Shown here piece after piece: positions 1-63,599 of a stretch of 64,000 nt of DNA. Position 1 is the stretch's first letter; each line of letters begins with the position of its first letter. The DNA comes from Hormiphora californensis (lineage: Eukaryota; Animalia; Ctenophora). The stretch is from positions 5,890,001 to 5,954,000 of the forward strand of contig CM035356.1 of the NCBI GenBank assembly GCA_020137815.1, written 5' to 3'. The translations under genes were made by a program, and so were the position numbers. The notes below the pieces were generated by a model. The model made no database searches. It was not told the DNA's origin and saw nothing but the letters and a program-made list of their open reading frames with translations.

Positions 1-1285
1 TCCTCCATTCGTCGATAGATTTTCTCAACCTTCCCTTTAAAAGCTCCCATGAAGGTGTCAGCAAGCTTGCCTTTTTCAATGTTCCCAGGCATGACTTCAA
101 CATTTTCCCTCCCCAGAAGGTGGTTCGAAGTTTGCCAAGTAGCCCGAGGGTCATGCTGTTGTTCTTCGAGACGAGCCGCGAAGTAGTTTTCTCTTACTCC
201 AGTCAGGATTTTATCAGTTTCCTTCTCCTGTGCTTTACAGTCCTCAAAGAAGTTGAGTATCACAACGGGGTCTGTTTTGGTCCGAAGAATTGCCCTATAT
301 TTCCTTTCTTTCCTCCTTCTTTCCCTTCTTGCCCCTTGGCAGATCTCATAGTTCTGTGTGAACCATTTATTACTGCGAGTTTTAACCTTCCTAGTAACCA
401 CGGGCGCCCGACTATCCATAAACCCCGTCAACACCGAGATATACAGCTCAACACACTGGTCCAGGTCATCAGGTAACTCATCACAAAGATCCGACTGAAG
501 AATGTCTTCCCTAAGATCCTCAATGTCAAGGTCTTTCATTTTTCGGCTTGTAACTAGCTTAAACTCACTGTTAGAACTACAGCCAGCCACATTTAGAGAG
601 AAGCTCACTAGTGAATGATCAGGAAGAGCAGGTGCCCTATAAGTTTCCAGTCCGTCCAACGCCGTAAGGTCTGCATCCCTGGTTAGTACCAAATCAAGTG
701 TGCCACCCCTCACATGCGTAGGCCCGATAACATGTTGAGACCATCCCTCCGACAGAATAAGCGCTTTAAACTTCTGTGTGAATCGGTCAGTATCATCTTG
801 GAATCTAACATTAAAGTCGCCCATGACAACAGGAACGCCGCCCTTTGATACAAAGGAATTTAGATAGCTGCCAAACTCAGTTATGAAGTGAGTATAGTCA
901 TTCCCCGTGCGATAGATAACAGCAAGCCGGACTCCAACACTGCCCTTCACGAAGATCTCCAGACATTCAAAAGACTTAGTGGATGTTTTACACGTAGTAA
1001 ACTTGATCTTATTCCGAATAATGAACGCCACTCCACCCCCTCGCTTCCCTTTCCTCGGTGCATTAACCAGAGTGTGCCTCCAATCCCCCACCTCCGCCGC
1101 CAGTGAAGATTCATCTAAGTTAAGCCACGTTTCAGTAAGAGCTAGAATCCCAAGTCCATTTTCGACCATCATTCCCATGACCTGATTAACCTTGTTCCGC
1201 AAGGAGAAACAGTTGCCAAGTCCAACCTTAATGGTCCTGCACCCTACCTTCCCTAAATCAGTCACACGCCCATCTTCACCAACTA
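1..1285 (-). CDS. LINE ORF2 N-terminus, apurinic-like (APE) endonuclease domain (partial; not in ORF track because no stop falls inside the window)
   Basis: Manual translation gives IKVGLGNCFSLRNK, LALTETWL, RGGGVAF, VIYR, VMGDFN, PTHVRGGTLDLVL and SDH, the ordered APE motifs of non-LTR elements. Confidence 0.88.
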
Positions 1286-2401
1286 GTTTTTTGCATTCCT
1301 TAGTTTAAGAAGGAAAACAGGACAGTCAGGCGAACCGGCATTGTGTGAGTTGGCATTACCCTTCAGCTTAGGGTCACTGGCATTTTTACAGTTAGTGCAA
1401 CACACTCTCCCCCTGTTCTTACAATCCTTTGTCTTGTGGCCTTCCGCACAGAACATACATGTAGCCTGTGGTTGCTCGCATTCCCACGCTTTGTGGCCAA
1501 ATTTCTGGCAACGGTAGCACTGTGGAATATAGTACCGATCTTCCACCCTACAGGAAACATTTCTAACGAAAAGTTTTCCTCCCTTTACCAACAAGTCCCG
1601 AAGAGCGCAAGAAACTCTCAACCCCACGTTAACCCGTTCTCTCGCTCTCGATTTCCCAACATAGACAACCTCCAAAGTATGCCCCTGGTCTATTAGAGAG
1701 CTCACCTTAGAGTTCTTCATCCGAATCATCTCAACTATGGCACTATCCAAATCACTCCGGCCCATATCAACTGGAAATTCTTCCACGGGAAGTGGAAAGT
1801 CCTTAACCGTAACCTTAGGCAGTTTAATAGATGTCTTATAGGTCGCTGCCTCGGGAAGAACTGCCTTAAGCTGACTCTCAGCAGATTGAAGCATGTCCTG
1901 ATCAGGTAAGGCAATTATTACATCGCCATTGGCCTCCGCCCTCATGAAGGACACAGGTGTCTCCTTTAGAGCCTCAGAAGCTCGTTTTACAGCCGTATCT
2001 CCCGCATTACTAATCGTAATTTTTGCAGCAGGTTTCTTAAGAACTTCAGCAAATGACCCACCGAGATTCTCACCAAGACTCGCCCTTAACCCCACTCCAT
2101 CACCCCGACGTAAGTCCATTTCTCCAACAAGTTTTTCTACTATGAAATCAGCGTGCTTACCAAGCTCACTCACAACACATCGAGCAATCTCCTCTCCACT
2201 AGCCCCGGTCTGCCCAAACCCCTTAGCCTTCCCGCTATCCACCGAATCAAAACACGGGGGGCATAGCCAGCATAATCCCACGAGTTTACTTACTTCGACG
2301 GGTACGGGCGGATCAGCATCATCTCGCTCCTCTTTGCACATCAAACATACCATCTTCTCTGTAACTGCTATCTCTGCAGCCGCCTTTCTCGTTATTGTCA
2401 T
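1283..2401 (-). CDS. LINE ORF1, gag-like nucleic-acid-binding protein with C-terminal CCHC zinc knuckles
   Basis: 372 aa; knuckles CYRCQKFGHKAWEC, CMFCAEGHKTKDC, CTNC...SHNAGSPDC; N-terminal CLMC/CWLCPPC cluster. Confidence 0.9.
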   Translation of the reverse strand: MTITRKAAAEIAVTEKMVCLMCKEERDDADPPVPVEVSKLVGLCWLCPPCFDSVDSGKAKGFGQTGASGEEIARCVVSELGKHADFIVEKLVGEMDLRRGDGVGLRASLGENLGGSFAEVLKKPAAKITISNAGDTAVKRASEALKETPVSFMRAEANGDVIIALPDQDMLQSAESQLKAVLPEAATYKTSIKLPKVTVKDFPLPVEEFPVDMGRSDLDSAIVEMIRMKNSKVSSLIDQGHTLEVVYVGKSRARERVNVGLRVSCALRDLLVKGGKLFVRNVSCRVEDRYYIPQCYRCQKFGHKAWECEQPQATCMFCAEGHKTKDCKNRGRVCCTNCKNASDPKLKGNANSHNAGSPDCPVFLLKLRNAKN

Positions 2402-2436
2402 CGTCTAGATGGGGAATTGAGGTGCCTCACGACAAC

Positions 2437-2477
2437 CTCAAATTAATTTGTTTAAAGTAGTGTTGAAAAGTTTGAAA
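2437..2477 (-). other. Spliced-leader exon sequence, genomic copy 1 (41 nt)
   Basis: Minus strand TTTCAAACTTTTCAACACTACTTTAAACAAATTAATTTGAG, identical to the copies at 62060-62103 and 62272-62315; matches my recollection of the ctenophore SL. Confidence 0.85.
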
Positions 2478-3283
2478 AGATTAACTTAGCGTGTCTTTGA
2501 GACGTAGAGAGAACGACGGGGGTCAGATAGGTGTAAAAGAAGGAAAAGACAAAACAATAAATCAATTCATCCTCGGATCAATGTAAAAGGGTCGGAGACA
2601 AAAACTAAAAATCGCAAACAAAGATCTGGAAATTTTTGATTTCTGAGTTTGAATTTTTCGAGCGCGGCGCGGCAAAAACGTAATCTTCACTTTTGCGCGC
2701 ATTTATATTTGCAGCGTATTATGGCTAAAATTGCGTGTGCCAACTCACATAAATAAAGATGCTATCATTTATCAAAAAGGAAAGCTAGGCGACCTGGATA
2801 GGTCTAATTTCGGGGTACTGATTTCTCTGCAGCATGGCCTGGTGTTTGTTATGGCAACGCCAACACCGTCGGCCGTCACCAATTTAGTAAATTATTTACT
2901 TGATCTTGAGTCAAGATCAAGATTCTTGACACCTAGCCTGTACTTGTAGCTGTAAGCGTATGGCGGCGCCATAGTCCATACTCCATACCCCCATTTGATT
3001 CTCAAATTGCTTGTTGAGTAACAACAAATTGCAGCTTGGCACCAGTAAAATACCTGCACTCGATATGACTAAAGTAAATGGTGTCAGAATTCAGAGCATT
3101 GGCGGAGCACTCAGCACACGAGAACCGTGGTCAGAGCATTGTCCTGACAGTGTGACAGTGTGACTGTCAGTGTCAACTGTCAGCCCAATGCTCTGACTGC
3201 CACTTTGCAGTCTCTCAAGTGAAGTGTGAACTTCTACCAGTACCAATTAGAATAGTTTGGTGGTGGATAACTATAAGACAGCT

Positions 3284-3927: not shown

Positions 3928-4355
3928 TACTAAATATCTAAATATGCTCATACCATCTCAAGGCTGTTTGATACTGACTCATAATCACAAAATATATAGA
4001 ATGCTTGTGACATATCCTAAAGCCGAAACCACGGAAACTAAATATCACACTTTTCATATTTCCTATCACAGTATCACACACTTCCTAATTCATAGTCGGG
4101 ACTTCCATGTTCCATAGTGATACATAAGCGTGGTAGAGGAATGCACTATATTCATTCAGAAAGAGCAACGTATAAACTCATGACCAGGGGATCTATATAA
4201 CTAAAATTATCACACAGTTTCTAATATCTTGTGACAGTGTCCACTAGATACACATGATAACCTAAATTGACACATGATAAACATGTTCCTCTCATGATTC
4301 TCCACATTGTTGAGTAAGGGATGAACAACATCTTCAACTTCTCGTTAGGTGATCA

Positions 4356-16026
<11,671 letters not shown>

Positions 16027-42601: not shown

Positions 42602-44312
42602 TCAAAGTACCCTCTTAGTTTGAGAAAATGGTTTCTTGGTTGAACAGGGCCAGTTTGAATCCTCGGTATTCAACCAGTGGTTCCTTGCCATTGTAGCCAA
42701 GGTCCCATCGTTTACCAGCGCCTCCTTTAGGTTTTCCGTCTCCACCGATGTCATGAAATTACACGCGTACTCAGGGCTGATACACCGGCTCAGAGCCTCC
42801 GATAGAAAGGCCATGGTTTCCTTATCGTAGAGAGAAAAATTGAAATTCTCCAAGATGTAATCTCGAAGTGGGAGTGAGTGACCGAGGTCCAGAAATGTGA
42901 TTAGATTTTGCACGAACGTTGAGTGTAGCTCAAATTGAACAGCTAGTGCCATCAACAAATCCATTTCGGGACGTTTTGAAGTGGCTGCTAACAATCGGGG
43001 AATCTTGAATTGAAAGGCGGTTTTGTTTTCTGGAACACTCGAGAAAATATGTGTTAAGAATTTATCATCGCCAAACTTAACCGAGCAATCCAAGGCCAGC
43101 AGGGCACATTCCCAGTAACCAGTGAATTCATCCAATGATTTAGGAAGTTGTTGTTTGAAGAAAACAAGACATCCCTCCTTGGCCCAGTCAACTTTAAACA
43201 CAGCCACCATCTTGAGAAAATCACCGAATACCTTGAACTCGGTGGAGTCAACCAGCTTGTCAAGCCTCCCTGTGTAACAAGCATCAACGAATATTCGGAC
43301 GGATTCAGGTTCAAAATCAGAAACATCATGATCTAGCTCCCCCACTTCCTCAATTAGATTCTTCAAGACAGGAGAGTTACGGGACAGAACATAGGAGTTC
43401 AGAGAGATGTTAGTGCTATCGCTCAGAACAAAGCTGTTGTTTCCATGGGCAGGGAGGGACAGATACTCTTTACCAAAGTCTATCCCGGCTGGTTTTTCAA
43501 TAGCCGGCGAATTCACGGAGACTGAGCTAGTTCCCGAATTTGTCGCTGCTGGTTCTTGTTCGCAGGGAGAGCTGTGCATGTGGTCTATAATGATAAAAGT
43601 TACCAAAACAGATGCTCCGCCTCCAACGCTATTTTTCGGTAGTTTGAAATCAATATACTCTCCCAGGAGTTTACATTGCTTCAGAGTTGGGTTCTGCCTC
43701 ACCAGTATTAACACAGATTCATCCAAATTCTCTATTATGCCTGTTTCTGGGCTATAGCCGTTCACTTTAAACTTCAAGTGTCGAGGTCCACGCCTTTTCA
43801 CTTCGACTTTCCAGCTTTTCCCGAATTTTTCAAGGAATATTTCATTTAAAGCAGGCACACCAGTGAGGTTTATGGTTCGGCTGAAAACAACCGTGCTTTT
43901 CTCGTCCTGCATAATCTGTTGAACATGTGCCTCGCCCAAGTTACATTGAGTGATGACAGCAGATACGGTTATCTTTATTTCATTTTCCCCGCTATCTTTC
44001 ATGAAGTTCTGCCATCCATGTCCATATCCAGATCCGTTGTATTTCTTGCCAGTATAGGTGTGATTTTTCACTCCTCTTGGTGATACCATGTTCCATCGAG
44101 AAGTCTGTACTGCAACTCCAATTCTTAGTAGCGTTAACAGGTTTAATATGAAGAGAAGCATCGATAAAGTCTTTACCACGAGTTTTACTAACACATACGC
44201 TCCAAAAGAATCCGTGAAACAGCCGCCAATCGCTGAACAATCGCTCATGATCTTCAAGCTGTCTGTTGCGTGGTATAGAGATTAAAAACTCCGCTGAAAA
44301 CTGTTTTGCCAT
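42602..44312 (-). CDS. Intronless MATH-like + BTB protein, copy 1 (one +1 frameshift near 44065)
   Basis: ORFs 43992-44312 and 42602-44257 together match the 570-aa copy 2; one extra base lies in or near a T run. Confidence 0.75.
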
Positions 44313-44604
44313 GTTCGTTCCTTTGGGTGAGTTAATAATAAGTTAGTAATTTTGTAGTTCACAACTCACGAGTTATGGGATGAGATTCAAGCGGACGATA
44401 CAAGCGGACGATACAAAAGGGTTACAGGGTGGTTTAGCAGGCATATATATACGAGTGGGCTAACGGGTGGTTTAGCAGGGGCATGTCTTTAAGAGGGTTA
44501 TAGCCTATAGGGTTGGTTGGTTTCAGCTGGCTGTTCTTTGTGAAAGAAACAAATATAATTGTGAAATTAAAGTTCATTTTAAAAGAAAAGCTGACAAACT
44601 CTAT

Positions 44605-46522
44605 TTAAGACAAAAACATAATGTAGATTAGCGCAAGGAGCATGAAAAATAAACACACGGCGCTGACTTTCTTACAAATGCCTAACAAAACGTCCCTGCT
44701 CTCTGTAGAATAAATAACTTCTTTGATAAGCTTGTTATTCATTGCGAAGACACCTCTTTTAGCCTCGAAAATAGCCAATTTTTTCCCTGCCCGGGTGGAT
44801 GCCCGAAGGGCATCCACCCGGATGATCGTTTTAGCACGTGTGCTAAAAAGATCATAAAGGGTTTAGAAATCTCGGATTTGAAATAGTAACTCGAGCGTGG
44901 TCAAAATCGCGTGTGTCACGGTAGCAGCCTGACAACCGCGATGCTGACAATTTTGAAAAGTTCGTCCGCAAAGTTATTACAGTACGGATTTCGGTGGCGC
45001 GCGCTCAGAATTTGCTGCGCGCGCACACTCTCAATGCAGCGTATGTATACACACCTCGCGCGTTACAGCATAGCCGTAGCGCTTGAATGGATTTAACTTC
45101 TTGGTAAATCTGATTGAAACTAAAAGGCGTTGAAAGCTCAGCTCGTTAGTATGGTGACTGAGGGAACGTGAGAAGTTTCCCATGCATAGCTTGGTGTCAC
45201 ATAACATTGTAATTAGGCGTTGGCGGACGACGATCAGATCACATTGCACGGTATCGTCTGGTGTGACTGTGAGCGGCGCTTACCAGATCTCATCGTTTAT
45301 CAGTGATCGGTTCGAGTATTCGTTGGCAGGGAAACACAGCATTATGAAACATAATGCAATAATAATTCTTGTTGATCCTCAGTAAGGTCAAGGGCATCCA
45401 ATCGCTCATTGTAAAGCTTCTTTGTGGCTGCACTACTAAATCCTTCGGGCCAGTCGAGCGCCTGATATGACGTGAAGATTCGGATTTTTACATTTAACCT
45501 TTACAAACCTGGAGATATCAATAATCTTCATGGTCCACTGATTCATTATGCAAAGAACCTTGGACGAAGGTCCTTGGTAAATTACCCCTCCCTTCATTAC
45601 CGACATGGGACATACCTTCACTCCAAGGGGGAAGGTTTTCTTAAGTCCAAGTACTCTAACAATCATAGGCCGGAGGATGGCACCACCAGCCAGGATTGCC
45701 ATCTGCATTGTTTGAAGATATCCTATCAGCACCACCGGGTCGCCTGCCACGTCTGCCTAAAATCAGGGAAAATGGATCGCTCTTAAATATTCCGGGTTTT
45801 TTAAAGACTTTTCGATGTCTTACTGTCTCAGAAACACTGCAAATCTATCTCTCGACCATTTTAAAATATATTTCTAACCTGAATTTTCTGCTTGTATTCC
45901 TGCAACCCTGGTGATATTTCATCCTCCGGCAACTCTCCATCATAGAAATAAAGGACATCATCTTCGAATGCTGGAAAAGTAAAAGTGAATATACAGTCAG
46001 ACCTCGATTTACCGGGATGATAAACTTCCCCGATATACGAAATTGGCAGTATTTCAATTTTGACCCTGATATACCGGGCACCTGCACCCCGATATACGGT
46101 ATACCGGGCAAAACCCTTTACCCCGAGCATTTTCATTTAACAATCCATTCACGAAGTGGAGAATGATAGTTGAAAATGGTACCTTCGCTACGGAAAAGGG
46201 TGGGGAAGTACAACTGTTGTAATTCTGGACAGTCACCCCGTAGATCATCCATCATCTCCTCGATCATTTCAAAAACCTTCCAAAAACGGTACACAGCCAT
46301 ACGATAGACATTTCGATCTGAAATTGAGGGAGATCCAGAGAAAAGAGATGGAGAAGGAGAAATCGGGAGAAGTGAGAGAGTGAGAAACTGAAGTCTGGTA
46401 ATATATACCAAACTCAATGCATTTTTACCTGTCAGAGCAATGCTTAGTGCCGCGTTGAAGATTTTGTCTGACTTATCATGATCATCAGATAGTTTTTTCT
46501 TGAGTTCCTCAGAAAATCCCAT
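44605..46522 (-). pseudogene. Heme oxygenase-like copy 2, last exon interrupted by a ~590-bp insertion
   Basis: Near-identical to copy 1; the insertion between DQ and KLAIF introduces a stop after ~9 codons. Confidence 0.8.
44783..45371 (+). mobile_element. Non-autonomous Helentron/DINE-1-like element
   Basis: Inserted in a T run with no TSD (empty site visible in copy 1); subterminal inverted repeats TTTCCCTGCC / GGCAGGGAAA (45325-45334); 3' hairpin GCATTATG-aaa-CATAATGC; 5' palindrome CCGGGTGGATGCCC-gaa-GGGCATCCACCCGG. Confidence 0.75.
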
Positions 46523-46764
46523 ATTTACATTCTATATGGGAAGAGGGGACGCTTAGATCATATGGAGGCATATTGGACATTCAAATCGAATGATTGTAAT
46601 CAGTTACCGGGGATAATTAAAAAACATGCTTCTTTAAAAAGATTTAAAAATATACAAAATTTTAACCAATGATAGTTTTGATAATTAGTTTATAAATTTA
46701 AAAAATTATAATAAGTGTCTTTTCACTCAAATTCAAATTCTATCACCCTCTTTTCCATCGCGTT

Positions 46765-48477
46765 TCAAAGTACCCTCTTAGTTTGAGAAAATGGTTTCTT
46801 GGTTGAACAGGGCCAGTTTGAATCCTCGGTATTCAGCCAGTGGTTCCTTGCCATTGTAGCCAAGGTCCCATCTTTTACCAGCGCCTCCTTTAGGTTTTCC
46901 GTCTCCAACGATGTCATGAAATTACACGCGTACTCAGGGCTGATACACCGGCTCAGAGCCTCCGATAGAAAGGCCATGGTTTCCTTATCGTAGAGAGAAA
47001 AGTTGAAATTCTCCAAGATGTAATCTCGAAGTGGTAAAGTGCAGCCGAGGTCCAGAATTGAAATCAGATGTTGTACGAACGTTGAGTGTAGCTCAAATTG
47101 AACAGCTAGTGCCATCAGCAAATCCATTTCGGGACGTTTTGAAGTGACTGCTAACAATCGGGGAATCTTGAATTGAAAGGCGGTTTTGTTTTCTGGAACA
47201 CTCGAGAAAATATGTGTTAAGAATTTATCATCGCCAAACTTAACCGAGCAATCTAAGGCCAGCAGGGCACATTCCCAGTAACCAGTGAATTCATCCAATG
47301 ATTTAGGAAGTTGTTGTTTGAAGAAAACAAGACATCCCTCCTTGGCCCAGTCAACTTTAAACACAGCCACCATCTTGAGAAAATCACCGAATACCTTGAA
47401 CTCGGTGGAGTCAACCAGCTTGTCAAGCCTCCCTGTGTAACAAGCATCAACGAATATTCGGACGGATTCAGGTTCAAAATCAGAAACATCATGATCTAGC
47501 TCCCCAACTTCCTCAATTAGATTCTTCAGGACAGGAGAGTTACGGGACAGAACATAGGAGTTCAGAGAGATGTTAGTGCTATCGCTCAGAACAAAGCTGT
47601 TGTTTCCATGGGCAGGGAGGGACAGATACTCTTTACCAAAGTCTATCCCGGCTGGTTTTTCAATGGCCGGCGAATTCACGGAGGCTAGGTTAGTTCCCGA
47701 ATTTGTCGCTGCTGGTTCTCGTTCGCAGGGAGAGCTGTGCATGTGGTCTATAATGATAAAAGTGACCAAAACAGATGCTCCGCCTCCAACGCTATTTTTC
47801 GGTAGTTTGAAATCAATATACTCTCCCAGGAGTTTACATTGCTTCAGAGTTGGGTTCTGTCTCACCAGTATTAACACAGATTCATCCAAATTCTCTATCA
47901 TGCCTGTTTCTGGGCTATAGCCGTTCACTTTAAACTTCAAGTGTCGAGGTCCACGCCTTTTCACTTCGACTATCCATCTTCTCCCGAATTTTTCAAGGAA
48001 TATTTCATTTAAAGCAGGCACACCAGTGAGGTTTATGGTTTGGCTGAAAACAACCGTGCTTTTCTCGTCCTGCACGATCTGTTGAACAGGTACCTCGCCC
48101 AAGTTACATTGAGTGATGTCAGCAGATACGGTTATCTTTATTTCATTTTCCCCGCTATCCTTCATAAAGTTCTCCCAACCGCATCCAGATCCAGATCCGT
48201 CGTATTTGTGGCCAGTATAGGTGAATTTCGTGCTCTTCTTGGTGATTCCATGTTCCAGCGAGAAGTCTATATTGCAACTCCAATTCTTATTAGCGTTAAC
48301 AGGTTTAATTATATGAAGAAGAGCTTTGAGAAATTCGTTACCACGAGTTTTACTAACAGATACGCCCCAAAAGAATCCGTGAAACAGCCGCCAATCGCTG
48401 AAAAATCGCTCATGATCTTGAAGCTGTCTGTTGCGTGGTATAGAGATTAAAAACTCAGCGGAAAACCTTTTTGCCAT
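46765..48477 (-). CDS. Intronless MATH-like + BTB protein, copy 2 (intact, 570 aa)
   Basis: N-terminal MATH-like pattern (FHGFFWGVSV...LLHI...NWSC...GCGWENF); BTB pattern (SFVLSDSTNISLNSYVLSRNSPVLKNLI...VSDFEPESVRIFVDACYTG). Confidence 0.78.
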   Translation of the reverse strand: MAKRFSAEFLISIPRNRQLQDHERFFSDWRLFHGFFWGVSVSKTRGNEFLKALLHIIKPVNANKNWSCNIDFSLEHGITKKSTKFTYTGHKYDGSGSGCGWENFMKDSGENEIKITVSADITQCNLGEVPVQQIVQDEKSTVVFSQTINLTGVPALNEIFLEKFGRRWIVEVKRRGPRHLKFKVNGYSPETGMIENLDESVLILVRQNPTLKQCKLLGEYIDFKLPKNSVGGGASVLVTFIIIDHMHSSPCEREPAATNSGTNLASVNSPAIEKPAGIDFGKEYLSLPAHGNNSFVLSDSTNISLNSYVLSRNSPVLKNLIEEVGELDHDVSDFEPESVRIFVDACYTGRLDKLVDSTEFKVFGDFLKMVAVFKVDWAKEGCLVFFKQQLPKSLDEFTGYWECALLALDCSVKFGDDKFLTHIFSSVPENKTAFQFKIPRLLAVTSKRPEMDLLMALAVQFELHSTFVQHLISILDLGCTLPLRDYILENFNFSLYDKETMAFLSEALSRCISPEYACNFMTSLETENLKEALVKDGTLATMARNHWLNTEDSNWPCSTKKPFSQTKRVL

Positions 48478-49069
48478 GTTCGTTCCTTTGGGGGAGTTAA
48501 TAATAAGTTAGTAATACTAACTTAGTATTTATGTTATTATATAGTGTGTAGACAGGTAAAATAAACAAGGGTAAGAAAATATAAACTCTGAATTAATCGA
48601 GTCCTGGTGGGTGGAACGGAATACTTCTTCATAAATACTTCTCCTTGTATTGTGCTCCATCATTCCATCGTGGCTTACATAGTGGCTTACATAGTTAGCT
48701 GTGTCTAATTCTTTGTCGTTCACAACTCACGAGTTATGGGATGAAATTCAAGCGGACGATAACTCAAACTCGAATATTTCGAACTGGAACAGGGAACTCA
48801 CTTTTGAAAATTATTAGGCGATTTATAGTCTGGGTCTGGTGATTTCAGATTTTCTGTCCGCCCCACTATTCGGGTTGGCGTGATCTAAGTAACAATAACA
48901 ATAACAATAACAATAACAATAACATTTAACATTTATAAATCGCTTTTGAGCGAAAAGTGTTTATCTTGATCGACTTATACTAAAGCGTCCTTTCGATCAA
49001 AACTCGCTTTCTAAAGCGAGTTAATAGTTAATAAGTTAATTAAAATAGTTAACAATAAACTGTCACATA

Positions 49070-50175
49070 TCTCTATTATAATTTGGAGATGAACGACGTG
49101 GTGGTCGTTCCTTAGGCGGTATCTAAGCGACAAGCTGCTCCTTCATAAAACATTTCATGTACCCAAAGCTGTAAAGCTGCTATTTACACTTTTGAAACTT
49201 CCAGTGGAAGTTTATTAATATTTTCGAATGCCTTTTAACATGCCAGTCCCCATAGTTACCAATCCAGTTGCCATGGCAACCGTGTTGAAAGAGGCAAAAA
49301 GAACCACCAGGCGAAGCCGGGTGGGTTATCAAAATGCCCTTACTTGAGCGCACCCAATGGGTGCGCTAGTCCTTATTATAATAAGCAAATGAACGTCGTA
49401 GTGATGAGGAGTAGTGATGGAGTATCCCACGTGCAAATGGTGGGGGGTTGCCCTGGGAGGTGGCTTGGGAGGGGTATTGGAGGGGGATACTGCACGTGCA
49501 TATTATTGTTTGTTTGTTGCGAGTTCCTGTGTGGTGTTTCGTGGTGTTTTGGGATATACTACTGGGGCCGCCATGATTGCCAAAGCCTTTCTACCTACGT
49601 ACCCCGTTGATTCTCTACACAGCTACAATTCTACGGATCTTTATCACCTGATTCTACATGTTATTCAGCGGGATTTCCCTTGATGTTTATCACCAGCGCT
49701 CTACCACTACCAACCTCCGTATTCTTTACCCCGACATGGAGAGACAAAGAGTAAGAGGGGGCATAGAGACGGGTGGGGGTGTGTTGTAGGACTTAACAAG
49801 AGTAAGAGGGGGGGGGGGAGAGACATGGGGACGGTGGGGGGGTGAGGAACTTCAATGGGCTTTCTAGTCTATATTATAATTTGGAGATGAACGTCGAAGT
49901 CGTTCGTTAGGCGGTATCTAAGCGACAGGCTGCTCCTTCATAAAACACTCTATGTGCCCAAAGCTGTAAAGCTGTTACTCACAGTTACTCACAGTTCCAG
50001 CGGAAGTTTATTTATATTTTCGAATGACTTTTAACATGCCAGTCCCCATAGTTACCAATTCAGTTGCCATGGCAACCGTTTTATTGACGTTGAAAGGGGC
50101 AAAAAGAACCACCCGGCGAAGCCGGGTGGGTTATCAAAAAGCCCTTACTTGAGGCGCACCCAATGGGTGCGCTAG
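49070..50175 (+). mobile_element. Three head-to-tail non-autonomous Helitrons (types A-B-A)
   Basis: A|TC...CTAG(49369)|TC...CTAG(49867)|TC...CTAG(50175)|T; the 3' hairpin GCGCACCCA-A-TGGGTGCGC abuts CTAG in the A units. Confidence 0.85.
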
Positions 50176-51072
50176 TAATTAATAAATAGTTAATAAGTTA
50201 ATCAAAACAGCATAAACTGAACACTGTATATATCCACAAGATAGAATCATACAAAAGTCTAGGAAAATATAGCGCAACAGAGGCCATAGATCTCAACGTA
50301 AAAAATTACTACACCAGTCTCAATAAGGTGTGCACGTCATGGAAAAGATGAGGTGTAATGTTGAGCTTGGTCTTGAAAAATGGTTTACTCGTGTCTTGCA
50401 GAGTATGATAGTGAACGATAAGACTTCAAATCCCTTTCGGCAACATTGTGATGTGATATCCTGTGAATAGAGAGTTGATAGATTTCTACATGAAACGAAA
50501 ATTGAAAGAGCAACCACAACTGCAAATGCAGTTCAGAAAGATATAAAACGCTCTTGGATCAAGGGATCCAAAGATAGCAAAATACAAACTAAAGTCCAAT
50601 TTCCCACTCAAGCGACAGGTCGCCACACACCAACTCGCTAAACAGATGTGAAACTGGCTGAACCAGTGACGCTCGACAAGGCAGAGACCTATCCAGTGAT
50701 ACCAGGATCAAGCCCCATACCACCAAGACAAGACCAGAGAAAAGAATTAAGTGCCCGGCACCCCGCCACTCGAGTAAAAAATTGGACTATACCCAAACCT
50801 AGGTAAAAAAGCCGAGCAATGATACAGAAATATACAACCTGGGTGAAAGTCCGTTTACCAGTTTGGCCCATGGCCGTGATAGAGTGAAACTTCTTGGGAA
50901 TCATGCCAAATAAGGTCCAGATGAAGTGAAGATCCTGTTCCCTTAACCGCTCGAGAAAGAGAACAAACACACACATACATACAAACAAACACACACACGC
51001 ACACACAAACATACACACACACACACACACACATACACTAGAAGAAAAGAGGTTGAGAGAAAGAAGGGTAGG

Positions 51073-51103
<31 letters not shown>

Positions 51104-51466
51104 CTTTTTCTTTTTATTATGTATTGCCTCTTTTTGATTTTTTGATTTTTTTTAAATTTAAAAAAAATTTTTTTAAATTCTTTTTTCTTTGCTTTTTTGA
51201 TTTTTTAACCCGGGCTCTTTTTATACCGATCAGTTCTGGGGATCCGTCACATAAAATAAACCAATCAACTCCCAAATCTCCACTTCCTAGAACAAACAAA
51301 ATAATAAGTATTCAACTGACCACCAGACACACAAACAACCTCCTCTATATCTCCTGGCTCCTACTAACTCTAGAAATTCAACGGATTCCTATTGTCACAA
51401 TGGACATTTCAGCTCCTTACACGCCAAAAGCCCTACAGAACAAAAACGTCTTTAGATCCACTTTAA

Positions 51467-52856
51467 GGGTACGCTAACCAAAAATTTTTTTCGAGTGCAG
51501 GGAAATCTCTCACCGTAGGGTTGTAGGCCATGCCAAGGAGACCTCAAATATGCAATTTGAGCTCTCAAGTCGAATTCATATTTTTGCTACAGCTGCTTGA
51601 AAAATGAACTGAAAATAAGTTTTTGGCATCTTTAAAATACATTTGTAAAGATAGGAGCATGAAAATTTGGGGATTTGAAGAGGACATGAAGGTGAATAAC
51701 CACAAAAATTTTTTTTGCAATCCGAGCTGATTTCCGGTCCTGAGATGGATTTCTTTTTTTCCACTTTAACGCCCTATTTGGCAAAGTTCCGAAAACATGT
51801 GAAAGCTGTAAATTGGTGAAAAGTTGCGTCTAACGATTATCTAAGTGGCCATAAATTTTGGGCGTGTCCTTATTTGAGATAAGCTGTACAGAGTTTTTTT
51901 TTGTGAAAGCCGTCATTTCAGAAATAAATAAATTCCCTGTATCTCAAAAACGGCTGATCGTAGAGACCTGAGACTATGCTTAAACGATTCAGAAGGTCCG
52001 ATTTTGGGGGGGTCTTCTGAGAGACATTTTGCTCCTACTTCAACCGTTTTTGCTGTAATTGCGAAAAACAAATTCTATGAAAAGGGCAAAAGCTAAACTC
52101 CAATATCCTGTAATTAGGGAATTTTGGCTAAGAAAGGACCGAAACTATGGAAAAATGTGTAACAATCTAATTCCTTCACTATTTGGTCCATATGGGTCCC
52201 TATAATCACCAAAAACAAAATCACAAAAAATCCACGATGGCGAAGATGGGTTTTTGTTTTTCGCAATTACAGCAAAAACGGTTGAAGTAGGAGCAAAATG
52301 TCTCTCAGAAGACCCCCCCAAAATCGGACCTTCTGAATCGTTTTAGCATAGTCTCAGGTCTCTACGATCAGCCGTTTTTGAGATACAGGGAATTTATTTA
52401 TTTCTGAAACGACGGCTTTCACAAAAAAAACTCTGTACAGCTTATCTCAAATAAGGACACGCCCAAAATTTATGGCCACTTAGATAATCGTTAGACGCAA
52501 CTTTTCACCAATTTACAGCTTTCACATGTTTTCGGAACTTTGCCAAATAGGGCGTTAAAGTGGAAAAAAAGAAATCCATCTCAGGACCGGAAATCAGCTC
52601 GGATTGCAAAAAAATTTTTTGTGGTTATTCACCTTCATATCCTCTTCAAATCCCCAAATTTTCATGCTCCTATTTTTAAAAAAAAATTTTGAGATGCCAA
52701 AAACGTATTTACAGGACATTTTTTAAACAGCTGTAGCAAAAATATGAATTCGACTTAAGGGCTAAAATTGCATATTTGAGGTCTCCTTGGTATGGCCTAC
52801 AACCCTACGGTGAGAGATTTCCCTGCACTCGAAAAAAAATTTTGGTTAGCGTACCC
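51467..52856. mobile_element. Foldback DNA element with ~600-bp TIRs and TTAA TSD (Kolobok-like)
   Basis: TTAA|GGGTACGCTAACC...GGTTAGCGTACCC|TTAA; removal restores LINE ORF2 ...ETLKRFKVDLKTFLF. Confidence 0.8.
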
Positions 52857-53006
52857 TTAAAACGTTTTAGAGTCTCTGATTCACGCAATTCTCTTGGCAG
52901 TTTGTTCCATAGTCGAGGTCCCGATACGCTGAATGCACGATCAGTTGTCTTGTAATTTGGATGGGGGATTTCAAGCAAAAGTTTATCTCCATCTGCACGC
53001 AGTCCT

Positions 53007-53880
53007 GGGGGGGGGGGGTTCAACCTAAAAATTTCCATTTCCATTTGCCAAAATCCGGGTATCGATGGAAATTTTTAGAATTTTTTAGAAATTTTTAGAA
53101 GTTTTTAGTACTAAAAATTTCCAAAAATTTCTAAAAATTTCCAAAAATTTCCAAAAATTTCCAAAAATTTCCATTGACCAAGAAAAGAAAAACTAACAAA
53201 AACATGAAAATATACAAACACCGTTGTCGCAGAACTGGTTACTTTTCCTTACCTCTTGTGAGCACTGAGCATCAATAAATCATTTAATAATAGGTCAAAA
53301 ACATCGAGATCATATATTTTTTGGCAATCCGTACAATTTCTTCAGAAATCATAGATTCATTGGCCAACTAAGGCCAACTAAGGGCGTCTCGAAAACTTAT
53401 TGAAAAGTAAGTTACCAAATAGCACAAGATACCTTACATTCCTTCGGACGGAATGCCTAATACCGTAGTAGATCGGGTTTCTTAGCATACAAAATAGAAA
53501 CTTTAAACTCTTTTTTAAGCTAGATCACTGTAGATCATGGATGTAGCTTGTATAACTATCTTACTGTCGAAAACATGCAAAGATTACCTGTCATTAGCTT
53601 ACAATTGGGTTACCGAAAAACTTCTAAAAACTTCTAAAAACTTCTAAAAATTTCTAAAAATTTCTAAAAATTTCTAAAAATTTCCATTTACTAAAAACTT
53701 CCAAAAATTTCCATCGTCCATAAATTTCTAAAAATTTCTAAAAATTTCTAAAAATTTCCAAAAAATTCTAAAAATTTCCAAAAATTTCTAAAAATTTCTA
53801 AAAATTTCCAATATAAAATTTCCATTTGCCAAAAAAGTGGGTATCAATGGAAATTTTTAGGGTTGAACCCCCCCCCCCCC
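53007..53880. mobile_element. Poly-G/poly-C-ended foldback MITE with 10-bp internal repeats (AAAAATTTCY)
   Basis: G12-TTCAACC...GGTTGAA-C13; CAGTCCT duplicated at 53000-53006 and 53881-53887. Confidence 0.8.
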
Positions 53881-53908
53881 CAGTCCTATTGATTTTGTTT
53901 TCCTCTTA

Positions 53909-54790
53909 TTGCCCATTGTAGTCTTACAACAACCCCCCCCCCCACCCGTATCTATGCCCCCCTCTCACTCTTTGTCTCTCCATGTCGGGGTAAAGAATAC
54001 GGAGGTTGGAATAGTGGTAGAGCGCTGGTGATAAACATCAAGGGAAATCCCGCTGAATAACATGTAGAATCAGGCGATAAAGATCCGTAGAATTGTAGCT
54101 GTGTAGAGAATCAACGGGGTACGTAGGTAGAAAGGCTTTGGTAATCATGGGGGTCCCAGCAGTAGATCCCAAAACACCAACAAACAACAGCCACAGGAAC
54201 ACGCAACAAACAACCAATAACATGCACGTGCAGTATCCCCCCTCCAATACCCCTCCCAACCCACCTCCCAGGGCAACCCCCACCATTTGCACGTGTGGAT
54301 AGGTCACCATCCTCATCACGACGTTCATTTGTACTTTATAATAAGGACTAGAAAGCCCATTGAGATCCCACAACACCCCCCCCCCCCCCCGTCTCTATGT
54401 CTCTCCCCCTCTTACTCTTTGTCTCTCCATGTCGGGGTAAAGAATACGGAGGTTGGTAGAGTGGTAGAGCGCTGGTGATAAACATCAAGTAAAATTCCGC
54501 TGAATAACATGTAGAATCAGGTGATAAAGATCCGTAGAATTGTAGCTGTGTGTAGAGAATCAACGGGGTACGTAGGTAGAAAGGCTTTGGCAATCATGGC
54601 AGCTCCAGTAGTAGATCCCAAAACACCACAGGAACAACACAGGAACACGAAACAAACAAACAATAGAATGCACGTGCAGTATCCCCCTCCAATACCCCTC
54701 CCAAGCCACCTCCCTTGGCAACCCCCCACCATTTGCACGTGATGATAGGTCATACTCATCACGCCACGCATTTGTACTTTATAATAAGGA
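53909..54790 (-). mobile_element. Tandem dimer of type-B non-autonomous Helitron
   Basis: Reverse-complement homolog of 49370-49867; A|TC start, internal CTAG|TC junction at 54347/54348; removal between A and T restores LINE frame GRLLNKRKTKSIGLRAD. Confidence 0.8.
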
Positions 54791-56599
54791 TTAAGCAGGC
54801 GACCACTAAGATAGTCGGGTGCAAGTCCGTTTAAGCATTTGAATACCAGAACACAGGTTTTATACTCAATTCGCTCAGAGACCGGGAGGAAATGAAGCTC
54901 CTTCCGTAGCTGGGTCGTACCTCGCCAACGCCTCTGGCCATAGATGAAACGTGATGCGGCATTTTGGATCTTTTGAAGCTCTTGTCGGTTCTTCTTTGTC
55001 ATTCCGGTCATCAGGGAGTTACAGTAATCCATTTTGGAGTGGATCAAGCCGCAGACTAGTAATGTTCTTAGTCTTCGCGACAACTTCCCGGCGATTCTCC
55101 ATAAATTAACCAGAGTGGACTTACATGCATTGACCACCTTCAACACATGTTCATCCATGGAGAGTTTAGAGTCAAAGTACACCCCCAGATTCCTTGCCGA
55201 GTTCGTGACCACAGTGGGTGTGCCCTCTTTGAACAGCTGTACTGAGTCTACAGAGGTACTTCCTCTGGGAGATAGGATCATAACTTCAGTCTTTGTAGGG
55301 TTCAGTTGGAGAAAATTAGTCGTGAGCCAGGCCTGTATATCCGAAACGCAGGCCTGTAACTTCTGTTCAATATCAGAGAAGTCATCCGCTGAATATGCAG
55401 CGTACACCTGGGTATCATCTGCGTAAAAATGAATACCTACTCCGTGTTTCTCAGCAATTAGTTCCAGCTCCTTCGTGTAGCATATGAACAGAATAGGACC
55501 CAGAATCTATCCCTGAGGCACTCCAATAGTCAAATCAGTAAAAGCCGATTTCAACTCACCCACCATCACAGAAGCACCCCTACCCGTAAGGTAACTCCGG
55601 AACCAGTCAAGAGAGGTATCACTGACACCATATAGCTGCTCCAATCGTTTGAGGAGTGTCGAGTGGTTCACCGTATCGAAAGCCGCACTCAAGTCTAATA
55701 ACAGGAGCACCACCTTCGATCTTTCGTCCGTCAGTGTTAGCAAATCGTCAAATATGCGTAGGGTGGCAGTTTCACAGCTTTTATGCTGTCTATATGCAGA
55801 TTGATGTCTCGATAGAAGGTTGTTATCCTCTAGATGCTTGACGAACTGATCAGCTGCACACTTTTCAATGAGCTTGCCAAGGAATGGTAGGTTGCTGACA
55901 GGTCTGTAGTTACCCAGATCATCGGCGTCAAGATCTGACTTCTTAATCAAAGGACGAATAAGAGCAGTTTTCAAAGCAGTAGGGAATTTACCAGATAATA
56001 GGCTGTCGTTCACTATCTTAGATAGGACCGGGAGCCTCCCGGCGGGAGGAGTTCTCCAAATAATCGTCTGACAAAAGAAGTGGGTATAGGATCCAGCTCG
56101 CAATGTTTCGTGCCCATCTCCATAATGGTCGATCTTAAGACTGTATCAGACACCGGTTGAAATTTGAATGATGGCACTCGCGGTGCATTTGGAGATTGAG
56201 TTAGGTAGTACACCTACTTACGTTTCCGTTCTCCTGTTCTTGTTGAGATTCGGGATGAGAGTGTCTTCAAGACTTTGTGAAATTCATTAGCTATCCCACC
56301 CGCTGTATTCATGACCAATGGAGAAAATGTCCCTCCTTCAACTTCTCGAACCCGTTTACCGTATGATTGCAACGTTTTTAAAGCATTTTTTATTGGCCTA
56401 TGCTACAGGCCCGTAAGAAGAAGCCTAGCCATGGAAAACGTGCGCACTTGGGGTCTGCAGCGCATGCCAACATTTTTAAAAATGAAGGAAACAAAATTGG
56501 AAATCCCAAACCTGCAGGTAAAGTTTTTGGGGGGGGGGGGTAAAAGTTAAAAATTATACATAAAAATGAGTTTACATGTTCTGTAGTAATAAATAAGTT

Positions 56600-57162
56600 A
56601 AAAATTATCGGTGTTAAACCTCGTCATGTATAATAAATTATAATCAGTTTCTTCTGTTACTCTCGTTACTTTCGTCCCACGAAAACCTCGGCGGCTAACA
56701 ATAATAGTTTTTAGGAGACTGAATGAGAGGCGTTGACGAATGTAACGGATTGAATCACTATAGGACTGTTTAGTTTTCAGAGAAATCAATCTCGCAACCT
56801 GGGCATAAAACTGATAGGGATGCGTTGCTCGGTGCCAGCGAGTTAAAGACCCGGATGTCACACAATGACTTCACATTGGGGGACCAGACTCCTGTCGCAC
56901 CAACATCCAGTCGGGCATCGTTCGCTGTGATTGCCGACTTGTATTGGAATACTTCCCCTGTGAGTGGTAACAGAGGGGGCTCTATCTGGATATTCTTGCA
57001 TCTCGTCATTTTAAGGAAGTTGGCAGTTAGATCACGAATATAATTATGTCGTAGATAGACGTATCCCCCCAGTGGACAGGACAGACAATGCTCTATATCG
57101 TTAATATGTCCACATGCACAGTTCATAGGTATTCCTTTCATGGGTAGAAGATACCTCAGGGC
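56600..57162 (-). mobile_element. CRE-like non-LTR retrotransposon 3' fragment (CCHC + restriction-like endonuclease)
   Basis: LRYLLP...CACG...IEHCLSCPLGG...RHNYIRD...EPPLLPL...DARLDVGATGVW...DIRVFN; frameshifted downstream. Confidence 0.75.
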
Positions 57163-57167
57163 TAACC

Positions 57168-57577
57168 TGAATTTTCTGCTTGTATTCCTGCAACCCTGGT
57201 GATACTTCATCCTCCGGCAACTCTCCATCATAGAAATAAAGGACATCATCTTCGAATGCTGGAAAAGTAAAAGTGAATACAGTCAGACCTCGATTTACCG
57301 GGATGAAAAACTTCCCCCGATATAAGAAATTGGCAGTATCTGACCCTGATACACCCCGATATACCGGGCAAAACCCTTTCCCCCGAGCATTTTCATTTAA
57401 CAATTCATTCACGAAGTGGAGAATGATAGTTGAAAATGGTACCTTCGCTACGGAAAAGGGTGGGGAAGTACAACTGTTGTAATTCTGGACAGTCACCCCG
57501 TAGATCATCCATCATCTCCTCGATCATTTCAAAAACCTTCCAAAAACGGTACACAGCCATACGATAGACATTTCGAT
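57168..57577 (-). pseudogene. Heme oxygenase-like copy 3 remnant (exons 2-3 only)
   Basis: Matches copies 1 and 2; exon 1 is deleted at a junction near 57615 and the 3' exons are replaced by the CRE-like fragment. Confidence 0.8.
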
Positions 57578-57720
57578 CTGAAATTGAGGGAGATCCAGAG
57601 AAAAGAGATGGAGAAATGACAGTTTTGATAATTAGTTTATAAATTTTAAAAATTATAGAAAATGTCTTTCCACTCAATTTCAAATTCTATCATCCTCTTG
57701 ACTTCTAATAGTCTCGCGTT

Positions 57721-59432
57721 TCAAAGTACCCTCTTAGTTTGAGAAAATGGTTTCTTGGTTGAACAGGGCCAGTTTGAATCCTCGGCATTCAACCAGTGGT
57801 TCCTTGCCATTGTAGCCAAGGTCCCATCGTTTACCAGCGCTTCCTTTAGGTTTTCTGTTTTCACTGATTTCATGAAATTACACGCATACTCAGGGCCGAT
57901 GCACTGACTCAGAGCCTCCGATAGAAAGGCCATGGTTTCCTTATCGTAGAGAGAAAAGTTGAAATTCTCCAAGATGTAATCTCGAAGTGGGAGTGAGTGA
58001 CCGAGGTCCAGAAATGTGATTAGATTTTGCACGAACGTAGAGTGTAGCTCAAATTGAACAGCCAGTGCCATTAACAAATCCATTTCGGGACGTTTTGAAG
58101 TGACTGCTAACAATCGGGATATCTTGAATTGAAAGGCGGTTTTGTTTTCTGGAACACTCGAGAAAATTATATGTGTTAAGAACTTATCATCGCCAAACTT
58201 AACCGAGCAATCCAAGGCCAGCAGGGCACATTCCCAGTAACCAGTGAATTCATCCAATGATTTAGGAAGTTGTTGTTTGAAGAAAACAAGACATCCCTCC
58301 TTGGCCCAGTCAACTTTAAACACAGCCACCATCTTGAGAAAATCACCGAATACCTTGAACTCGGTGGAGTCAACCAGCTTGTCAAGCCTCCCTGTGTAAC
58401 AAGCATCAACGAATATTCGGACGGATTCAGGTTCAAAATCAGAAACATCATGATCTAGCTCCCCCACTTCCTCAATTAGATTCTTCAAGACAGGAGAGTT
58501 ACGGGACAGAACATAGGAGTTCAGAGAGATGTTAGTGCTATCGCTCAGAACAAAGCTGTTGTTTCCATGGGCAGGGAGGGACAGATACTCTTTACCAAAG
58601 TCTATCCCGGCTGGTTTTTCAATGGCCGGCGAATTCACGGAGGCTAGGTTAGTTCCCGAATTTGTCGCTGCTGGTTCTCGTTCGCAGGGAGAGCTGTGAA
58701 TGTGGTCTATAATGATAAAAGTTACCAAAACAGATGCTTCGCCTCCAACGCTATTTTTCGGTAGTTTGAAATCAATATACTCTCCCAGGAGTTTACATTG
58801 CTTCAGAGTTGGGTTCTGTCTCACCAGTATTAACACAGATTCATCCAAATTCTCTATCATGCCTGTTTCTGGGCTATAACCGTTCACTTTAAACTTCAAG
58901 TGTCGAGGTCCACGCCTTTTCACTTCGACTTTCCAGCTTTTCCCGAATTTTTCAAGGAATATTTCATTTAAAGCAGGCACACCAGTGAGGTTTATGGTTC
59001 GGCTGAAAACAACCGTGCTTTTCTCGTCCTGCACAATCTGTTGAACAGGTACCTCGCCCAAGTTACATTGAGTGATGTCAGCAGATACGGTTATCTTTAT
59101 TTCATTTTCCCCGCTATCCTTCATGAAGTTCTCCCAACCGCATCCATATCCAGATCCGTCGTATTTGTGGCCATTATAGGTGTATTGTTTACTCCTCTTG
59201 GTGATACCATGTTCCAGCGAAAAGTCTGTACTGCAACTCCAATTCTTATTAGCGTTAACAGGTCTAATTTGAAGACAAGCTTTGAGAAAGTCTTTACCAC
59301 GAGTTTTAATAACACTTACGCCCCAAATGAATCCGTGAAACAGCCGCCAATCGCTGGCAAATTGCTCATGATCTTGAAGCTGTCTGTTGCGTGGTATAGA
59401 GATTAAAAACTCAGCGGAAAACTGTTTGCCAT
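57721..59432 (-). CDS. Intronless MATH-like + BTB protein, copy 3 (1-nt deletion just after the ATG)
   Basis: The frame is open back to QFSAEFLISIPRN; ATGGCAAACAG versus ATGGCAAAACAG in copy 1. Confidence 0.75.
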
Positions 59433-62015: not shown

Positions 62016-62059
62016 CTTCTTGCTGCCCTCTTGGGCTCTTACATAGACATTTGCTGAAA

Positions 62060-62103
62060 CTCAAATTAATTTGTTTAAAGTAGTGTTGAAAAGTTTGAAA
62101 CTC
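62060..62103 (-). other. Spliced-leader exon sequence, genomic copy 2 (44 nt)
   Basis: GAGTTTCAAACTTTTCAACACTACTTTAAACAAATTAATTTGAG on the minus strand. Confidence 0.85.
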
Positions 62104-62271
62104 ATTCCTCGTACATTTAGCAAATGGGGTTTTTAAAAAATGAAGGAAAGAAAATCTGTTTATGAGGCCCCTCGGAAATGTTCAAGTCATGCACAATCAA
62201 GTCACGCCCACCAATCACAGCTCAGAACGCGCGAAGCAGTCCGCGCGTTCTGAGCTGTGATTGGTGGGCGT

Positions 62272-62315
62272 GAGTTTCAAACTTTTCAACACTACTTTAA
62301 ACAAATTAATTTGAG
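62272..62315 (+). other. Spliced-leader exon sequence, genomic copy 3 (44 nt)
   Basis: Identical to copy 2. Confidence 0.85.
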
Positions 62316-62344
62316 CAGGTAGATATGGTGATGTGATAGCCCCT

Positions 62345-63328
62345 ATGGGCAGACCGTACGATATGACAGTTATTCCAGTACGTCAAGAGGAGCTGACTCA
62401 GGCTGATTTGGATTGGTATGCGAGCCGGATCCTGACCATGGTCAAGTATGCAGGGATTCCTTCACCGGATTTAACCAGAAAGTTAGGGAGTAGCCCTGAG
62501 GATATCAGGGAAATACCGACATCTTTCAATATCCACTCATCCCACACGAAACGTGATTTGGCATCTGTGTTAGAAGATGTATTTATGTCGACCTTGCCAC
62601 TTCTTAAGTACTTCCAACATCGTTTCAACGTCGAGAAGTCGCCTGAGTTGGAATTAAAGGAAGAAAGAGATGAACTGTTGAGAAAGAGTTTGGAGTTGCA
62701 GAAAAAAGAGGAGATATTGAGAGTTGAGATGGATGACCTGTTGAGAAAGACTATTAGGTTACAAGAGCAGGTCATTGAGCTTCAGGACACTCAACTACAT
62801 CGAGTAACCGAAACAGTACAGAAAGATCTGCGCTCTTTCTCAACTGTCTTGACGCAGAATTGTAGGTCTGCTCTTGCACCGAAAAATATCAAGAAAGATG
62901 AAGGGAAAGCTCATGGCAAAAAAGTTGATTCGAGTCCAGATCCAGACAGATCCAAAAATCTGATGGTGTTTGGTCTACCGGAAGTTGAGGCAGAATCTGA
63001 ATCTGTGTTGAAATGCGAGATAGAGAATGTTTTGGCTGAGCTTGATGAGAAACCTATTGTTGTAGCTAAAAGGGTGGGTTTGAAACGGGAAGGAAGGGAG
63101 AGACCCGTGATCGTGAAGCTACAGAGTAGAGAAATGCTGCTGAGCCTTCTCCAGAAGGCTAGGCAGTTGAAACAGTCCGAATCGTACTGCGGTGTATACT
63201 TGTCAAGAGATATGTCACTCGCAGAGAGAACGGAGAGGAGGGAACTCCACCTTACATTGAAGGAGTTAAGGGAATCGAATCCCGAAAGACAATTTCGGAT
63301 ACGGAAAGGAGCGATAAACTTTTCATAG
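62345..63328 (+). CDS. LINE ORF1p-like protein, distant paralog of 61023-62015
   Basis: Coiled coil, TVQKDLRSFSTVL..NCRSALAPKNI, DRSKNLMVFGLPE...KRVG...RPVIVKL...VYLSRDMSLAERTERR...FRIRKG; first in-frame ATG at 62345. Confidence 0.8.
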   Translation: MGRPYDMTVIPVRQEELTQADLDWYASRILTMVKYAGIPSPDLTRKLGSSPEDIREIPTSFNIHSSHTKRDLASVLEDVFMSTLPLLKYFQHRFNVEKSPELELKEERDELLRKSLELQKKEEILRVEMDDLLRKTIRLQEQVIELQDTQLHRVTETVQKDLRSFSTVLTQNCRSALAPKNIKKDEGKAHGKKVDSSPDPDRSKNLMVFGLPEVEAESESVLKCEIENVLAELDEKPIVVAKRVGLKREGRERPVIVKLQSREMLLSLLQKARQLKQSESYCGVYLSRDMSLAERTERRELHLTLKELRESNPERQFRIRKGAINFS

Positions 63329-63599
63329 ACTATCTTTATAAACTGGACTCTTAAATGGACTCATATCTTTGATCAACCGTTTTTTGCCCACAAAAAGGGG
63401 CTGATAATTTGATACATCAAACTGTGTAAATTATTATATAGATTTAATAAATAAATAATAATGGTGGGCGTGACTTGATTGTGCATGACTTGAACATTTC
63501 CGAGGGGCCTCATGTTTTCGTGTCGGCCAGGAAAAATATCGCGCGCGAGAGCAAATTTTATGCGTCGCAAATAATGTAACGCGCGAACTGCAATGTCCT

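Follow-up and report, generated by a model that had tools for sequence, protein, structure and literature searches.

A two-ORF LINE lies at the start of the window, by which we mean the entire 64,000-nt stretch of Hormiphora californensis DNA analysed here, and runs on the minus strand (1..2477). Its 5′ end is the exon of the published ctenophore spliced leader (SL), of which the last 41 of 44 nt are present at 2437..2477 with 0 mismatches (blastn and the leader in PMC8527503). The same letters occur at 62060-62100 on the minus strand and at 62275-62315 on the plus strand (blastn, E 4e-15). The identity of 41/41 to the window copies and to the published leader bears out the initial annotation, which had placed 41 nt of the same SL 35 nt before the ORF1 start codon. 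These 35 nt (2402..2436, minus strand) are an element-specific segment that begins with GT and reaches to the ATG at 2401, giving 76 nt in total upstream of ORF1. The junction at 2436/2437 carries either of two leaders, and a pyrimidine-rich tract with a TAG 3 nt upstream of the ATG (2405..2422, minus strand) is the place where a second leader-like sequence is joined in sample S1. ORF1 (1283..2401, minus strand) encodes 372 aa with an N-terminal Cys cluster and three CCHC-type zinc knuckles and is type I-like. The 5′ part of ORF2 (1..1265, minus strand) encodes an AP endonuclease (APE; PF03372, E 1.3e-11 in Pfam) and a linker before it leaves the window. The open frame of ORF2 begins 17 nt past the ORF1 stop codon and its first ATG falls inside the endonuclease domain (window 1178-1285), so a non-ATG start codon or reinitiation is likely.

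The flank and the SL have 4 nt in common at the 5′ junction (2474..2477, minus strand), as seen in contigs of runs X1 and X2, and according to contig depths the low-depth flank at 2478..2600 is outside the element. The pyrimidine richness of this flank is equalled by 6% of sequence windows, and we drew no conclusion from it. Further upstream, the 3′ exons of a C2H2 zinc-finger host gene (4290..6721, minus strand) have the same orientation as the LINE; the apparent end of this gene, judged by eye, lies about 1.8 kb upstream of the SL. The gene is a candidate read-through source, and its strand permits read-through, although for one copy a same-strand neighbour is a coin toss. Rfam gave 0 matches across the window. 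A hairpin closing over the SL end of the window copy (z -1.99, 7/200 shuffles) was considered as a family trait and dropped, being absent in the related loci L028 and L042.

ORF1 matched 0 Pfam families, including RRM and PHD, and the PHD-like Cys pattern is only partial; the three CCHC motifs are visible in the translation and conserved across 12 aligned ORF1 proteins. We found 13 relatives of ORF1 at 44-58% identity. As the initial annotation had stated, this ORF1 is unlike the SL-headed elements A and B at the other end of the window: it shows no similarity to the ORF of element B (E 0.93) and matches other loci than A and B do. ORF2 has 90 longer relatives, and the best six (64-71% identity) carry a reverse transcriptase (RT, PF00078). 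We built a quick, midpoint-rooted ORF2 tree of 43 rows, comprising 39 of the 90 relatives, three SL-headed ORF2s from metagenomes and the window fragment, which covers 42% of the columns; L028 was omitted as too short. The window family and L039/L042/L064 form two sister branches of one group with support of 99; teleost RT proteins are the neighbours of this group, and a single CR1-like row from an amniote stands far apart. The teleost proteins, the nearest to ORF2, are probably of L2 type, judged by L2 motifs and reference labels. Judged by this tree and the protein motifs, the window LINE likely belongs to the L2 group. Three knuckles fit the type I ORF1 of the L2 and CR1 subgroups, as described in the part of PMC4120745 considered here. 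The likeness to these Jockey-group elements extends to two ORFs and to an APE followed, in close relatives, by an RT, whereas the ctenophore LINE differs from them in having the host SL as its 5′ end, an acceptor just before ORF1 and leaders that vary between copies.

Copies of the element were examined through contigs of public DNA runs, namely X1 and X2 (one sample, S1), X5, and X7 (organism B); X12 (organism C) yielded 0 matching contigs. In X1, the LINE body has a depth of 223 and each of two flank haplotypes a depth of 34, where depth is a rough contig mean; contigs drop rare variants and paths, so these values give no copy numbers per head form. In X5, a contig covering 2263-2441 and continuing into the SL has a depth of 2771, compared with 546 for the flank. 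In organism B, at least three contigs (depths 60, 75 and 173) reach from the start of ORF1 into SL sequence. A contig of X1 and X2 with a depth of 32-35 joins the flank, from 2474 onward, to 204 other letters and thus represents a haplotype without SL or LINE, which at the insertion site shares 4 nt with the SL start. The contig depths, the SL-free haplotype and the contigs of organism B together show that the SL heads several copies, that the element does not include the flank and that the site is not an SL gene. Recent insertion is the best explanation for the LINE copy in the window. The SL is present also in organism B and in several metagenomes and therefore marks a ctenophore, not one species.

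We searched metagenomes with a 24-nt SL pattern and obtained at least 121 loci, in which those 24 nt are forced by the search. In 108 of the 121 loci listed, fewer than 4 nt precede the SL, and these loci resemble mRNA 5′ ends. The 13 with more comprise four LINEs (L028, L039, L042 and L064), two SL RNA genes, four loci resembling host mRNAs with extra letters, and L071, L081 and L085. L071 is a relative of element B by protein, L081 is B-like by its 5′ DNA and L085 is unassigned, so the DNA-like loci among those listed are nine: four LINEs, two B-like, one unassigned and two SL genes. The ORF1s of the four LINE loci are 25-31% identical to that of the window, and the three long ones (L039, L042 and L064) encode RT and endonuclease. 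All four keep 40-43 of the 44 SL nt with 0 mismatches, each with its own flank. Starts within the SL, with different flanks, are thus seen in several copies of the window family, in organism B and in four distant LINE families; the contigs of X1, X5 and X7 and the metagenome LINE loci gave no sign that most full-length copies have a longer, SL-free 5′ UTR. The relatives have 145-188 nt between SL and ORF1 ATG with similar first bases, and a post-SL segment is kept in all five families. Among the 112 mRNA-like loci, 57 have a C directly behind the SL, and the first ATG follows at a median of 11 nt. The initial annotation had argued that the LINE has almost no room for an internal promoter. This argument fails, because 76 nt is about the size of the 77-nt promoter of L1Tc, the core promoters of insect LINEs extend no further than +28 to +35, the relatives have 145-188 nt and the median gap after the SL is itself 11 nt.

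The true SL RNA genes (L087 and L088) lie in tandem on one contig, 778 nt apart, each with the SL exon, a GTAAG donor and a structured intron. The 35-nt segment of the window agrees with the SL RNA intron at 6 of 35 positions, and 1716 of 2000 shuffles score as well; we therefore discarded the idea that the element had captured the SL intron, even though the segment begins with GT. Nor does the flank upstream of the window SL resemble the DNA upstream of the true SL genes. The case in which the far flank would be an SL RNA intron or SL gene did not occur, as the second haplotype is SL-free and the true SL intron differs.

A second leader-like sequence was found when leader joins were read from contigs aligned to window 2150-2452. 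Record 5 of X1 equals window 2162-2406 with 0 differences and continues into 27 other letters (plus strand CAATAAATAGTTTTACGTTGTAGTTGA). On the element strand the last of these 27 letters are TTG, and they abut the AG at 2406/2405; this AG belongs to the TAG that, 3 nt before the ATG, closes the pyrimidine-rich tract. Record 12 of X2, from the same sample as X1, has 25 unmatched letters at the same point. In X5, 22 letters of the second leader stand behind 2441 and replace the window SL after a shared TTGAG, a join which rests on 30 aligned letters. A contig of the same run joins 2412-2436 to the window SL at a depth of 341, and by subtraction the second-leader form has a depth of about 354. 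At least three kinds of head thus occur in the LINE family: the SL with the 35-nt segment, the second leader with the 35-nt segment, and the second leader with 3 nt. For X1, X5 and X7 taken together, 12 of 16 loose ends are listed, and no non-leader end is located at 2436-2441 among these. A loose end before 2429 in X1 was rejected as a head of the window family, as it belongs to another, L039-like family.

The second leader can be aligned to the SL, with an alignment as good in 24 of 5000 shuffles, or in 27 of 5000 without the last TTG. It was not found on host mRNAs and has no match in the window, in the 121 listed loci (which were selected for the first SL) or in viral contigs; the SL pattern itself gave 0 matches in viral contigs. 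Nor was it found in the published text within our scope, outside which it may be listed in Derelle et al. 2010 or in supplementary files of PMC8527503; PMC3795323 has no ctenophore entry. By its similarity and its join sites, the sequence, which ends in TTGAG, is a candidate for a further spliced leader of ctenophores that would be kin to the published one.

Regarding the join points, bases 2403, 2408 and 2410 differ in organism B and a sister subfamily, and 2405-2407 are unchanged among the differences listed. A YAG ending 0-5 nt upstream of the ORF1 ATG is present in 5/5 LINE loci and at 267/1821 window ATGs, with the range picked after viewing the data and three of the five loci close kin. 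With an A/T-rich stretch followed by a terminal GAG, the SL looks like a weak acceptor, because host acceptors, judged by eye, are CAG after pyrimidines. The short head could come from cis-splicing, because the two join points enclose 32 nt that begin with GT and close with AG; the leader swap at 2437 does not hang on this question.

The SL also heads elements of another kind. Element B carries the full 44-nt SL at its head (62060..62103, minus strand) and an ORF at 61023-62015. Element A (62274..63461, plus strand) is SL-headed, with a single ORF (62345-63328), an A/T-rich tail and a 12-nt target-site duplication; no such duplication was found for element B in the window, and its protein gave no naming match in PDB or the atlas. 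A and B are related, as both match loci L015 and L071. The initial annotation had spoken of unrelated lineages with the same 5′ end. Two kinds are indeed present, L2-like LINEs and single-ORF A/B elements, but the LINEs form one branch and A and B are related to each other. Element A, flanked by its 12-nt duplication, is nested in an element bounded by terminal inverted repeats and stands in head-to-head orientation to B (62157-63515). A short motif with a GCCC...GGGC hairpin follows the SL in A/B-type elements (62316-62345, 62030-62059; also L015 and L071), and in these elements a YAG follows the SL within 5 nt.

Precise junctions behind an AG, with one leader or the other, are the pattern that trans-splicing gives, and the LINE copies were very probably made from SL-spliced RNA. 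The second leader-like sequence sits at the same junction in other copies, and therefore the element is likely re-spliced as RNA during copying. Two leaders on one family are a DNA record of a recurring splice, which an SL head alone cannot provide. The proposal that the element obtains its 5′ end by trans-splicing of its RNA is thus supported in part, with the two leaders pointing to repeated splicing. The RNA to be spliced would likely start upstream in host DNA, and the element may need no promoter of its own. A transcript entering a copy would be spliced at the AG that ends the old DNA-encoded leader, so that the 35-nt segment would be kept and the leader renewed or swapped. Alternatively, splicing at the TAG before the ATG would place the leader 3 nt from ORF1. 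Both RNA forms would be capped, translated and reverse-transcribed, and the few nt lost at insertion would be restored in the next cycle. We lean slightly towards this whole chain, in which an SL-headed LINE is trans-spliced again in each cycle and uses read-through instead of its own promoter. The broader version, in which ctenophore L2-like LINEs and single-ORF passengers gave up the internal promoter and are excised from host read-through RNA in each cycle by trans-splicing at the AG of the leader encoded in their own DNA, so that 5′ end and cap would be renewed and leaders could be swapped, with the second acceptor making the translated form, is one that we put forward tentatively and with somewhat more doubt than belief. 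The part of PMC8527503 considered reports a 44-nt trans-spliced leader in H. californensis and 718 genomic copies, read there as leader loci. SL-headed elements change how genomic SL copies in ctenophores are to be read, besides hinting at a second ctenophore leader, and if the broader version is true, many of the hundreds of copies would be retroelement heads and not SL genes.

A serious rival, although an unlikely one in our estimate, is a short promoter of the element's own, situated in the SL, in the segment after it or in the start of ORF1, that would fix transcription at the first base of the SL and leave trans-splicing as an occasional event explaining the swaps. In nematodes, the SL exon also acts as a promoter element for the gene that encodes it. 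The length of 76 nt matches that of Pr77, the 77-nt promoter of L1Tc, and in insect LINEs the core promoter ends by +28 to +35 (both from the portion of PMC4748587 considered); an SL-derived promoter has been proposed for dinoflagellate retrogenes (PMC5585692, considered in part). The 145-188 nt after the SL in the relatives, with their similar first bases, and the retention of the post-SL segment in all five families also speak for a promoter. Against it, one of the forms present in DNA has its leader just 3 nt from the ATG, and two different leaders serve one junction. Moreover, insertion costs copies 1-4 nt of the SL, yet families that are only 25-31% identical show no eroded or flank-patched SL. 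It is improbable that all RNA comes from a master copy that lacks the SL and has an outron and an upstream promoter of its own, the SL-headed copies being dead-end progeny like SL retrogenes. Such a master's own acceptor would give two leaders at one junction without recourse to the weak GAG, and a single rare copy can be lost from contigs. It could not, however, carry its upstream promoter through spliced RNA, and SL heads occur in two organisms and in both deep branches of the LINE group, while the listed loose ends at 2436-2441 (12 of 16; X1, X5, X7) include no non-leader end.

Template switching or RNA ligation during reverse transcription, for which U6-L1 chimeras are a precedent, could have attached the leaders in place of the spliceosome, and the short homology at both joins (TTGAG shared by the leaders, AG at the internal join) would suit it. 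We regard this as very improbable, as the joins coincide precisely with the end of the SL exon and follow an AG, SL intron letters are absent after the SL in every LINE locus and the 5′ ends stop at the SL start. Least credible, and largely refuted, is the reading of the locus as a LINE inserted into an SL RNA gene or as an assembly error through the SL repeat. The SL is followed by GT and has hundreds of genomic copies (718 in the part of PMC8527503 considered), and no contig among those listed spans the SL together with the flank of the filled site. On the other hand, the second haplotype has no SL at the site, neither the flank nor the 35 nt resemble their counterparts in true SL genes (the upstream DNA and the SL intron, respectively), and contigs of both X5 and X7 show the join of ORF1 to SL again.

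With every new copy, a LINE has to regain its 5′ end and promoter, and the established solutions are an internal promoter or excision of the element from a co-transcript by a ribozyme. To these, trans-splicing would add another one, in an animal. SL sequence also abuts SLACS, CRE, CZAR and NeSL, which have a restriction-like endonuclease and no APE and sit in SL RNA genes. The ctenophore LINE, in contrast, has an APE and sits in unrelated DNA with flanks that differ between loci, and we rejected its classification as an SL-gene-targeting retrotransposon on the basis of the APE, the second haplotype without SL and the differing flanks. In flatworms, SL fragments have been noted on LTR and LINE elements (597 loci in PMC12582326 and six in PMC5832876), with copying from trans-spliced RNA suggested, and in Hydra the SL is on about 30% of TE long reads (PMC12220107). 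The likeness lies in retroelement RNA that receives an SL and, as proposed, is reverse-transcribed together with this leader; in the parts of these papers considered, the cases are remarks in passing on partial leaders or RNA, without a family-wide intact SL head, a swap or a cycle. Dinoflagellate retrogenes keep SL relics, proposed as promoters, whose AG is re-usable as an acceptor (PMC5585692, considered in part). There, too, a DNA-encoded SL marks a copy from trans-spliced RNA, but the relics belong to host genes and are decaying and stacked, whereas in the ctenophore LINE the SL belongs to the element itself and is exact and single. L1Tc/ingi of trypanosomes are likewise LINEs with a very short 5′ region in a trans-splicing host; according to the portions of PMC1874656 and PMC4748587 considered, they have the opposite solution, a 77-nt internal promoter giving unspliced RNA. 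Our literature search covered titles and abstract openings, with most subscription papers and Repbase notes outside its scope, and returned no SL-headed LINE family described as a life cycle and no leader swap; the parts considered of PMC5240408, PMC9311404 and PMC1657053 contain no direct precedent.

Several other features of the window were recorded. A 38-nt repeat at 3113-3150 is present in very high copy with many different flanks in all four runs. At 8650-10310, the GC-rich unit of a 13-nt tandem repeat shifts to a telomere-like unit containing TTAGGG. Three near-identical BTB genes, one with a MATH match, lie in tandem on the minus strand at 42602-59124.
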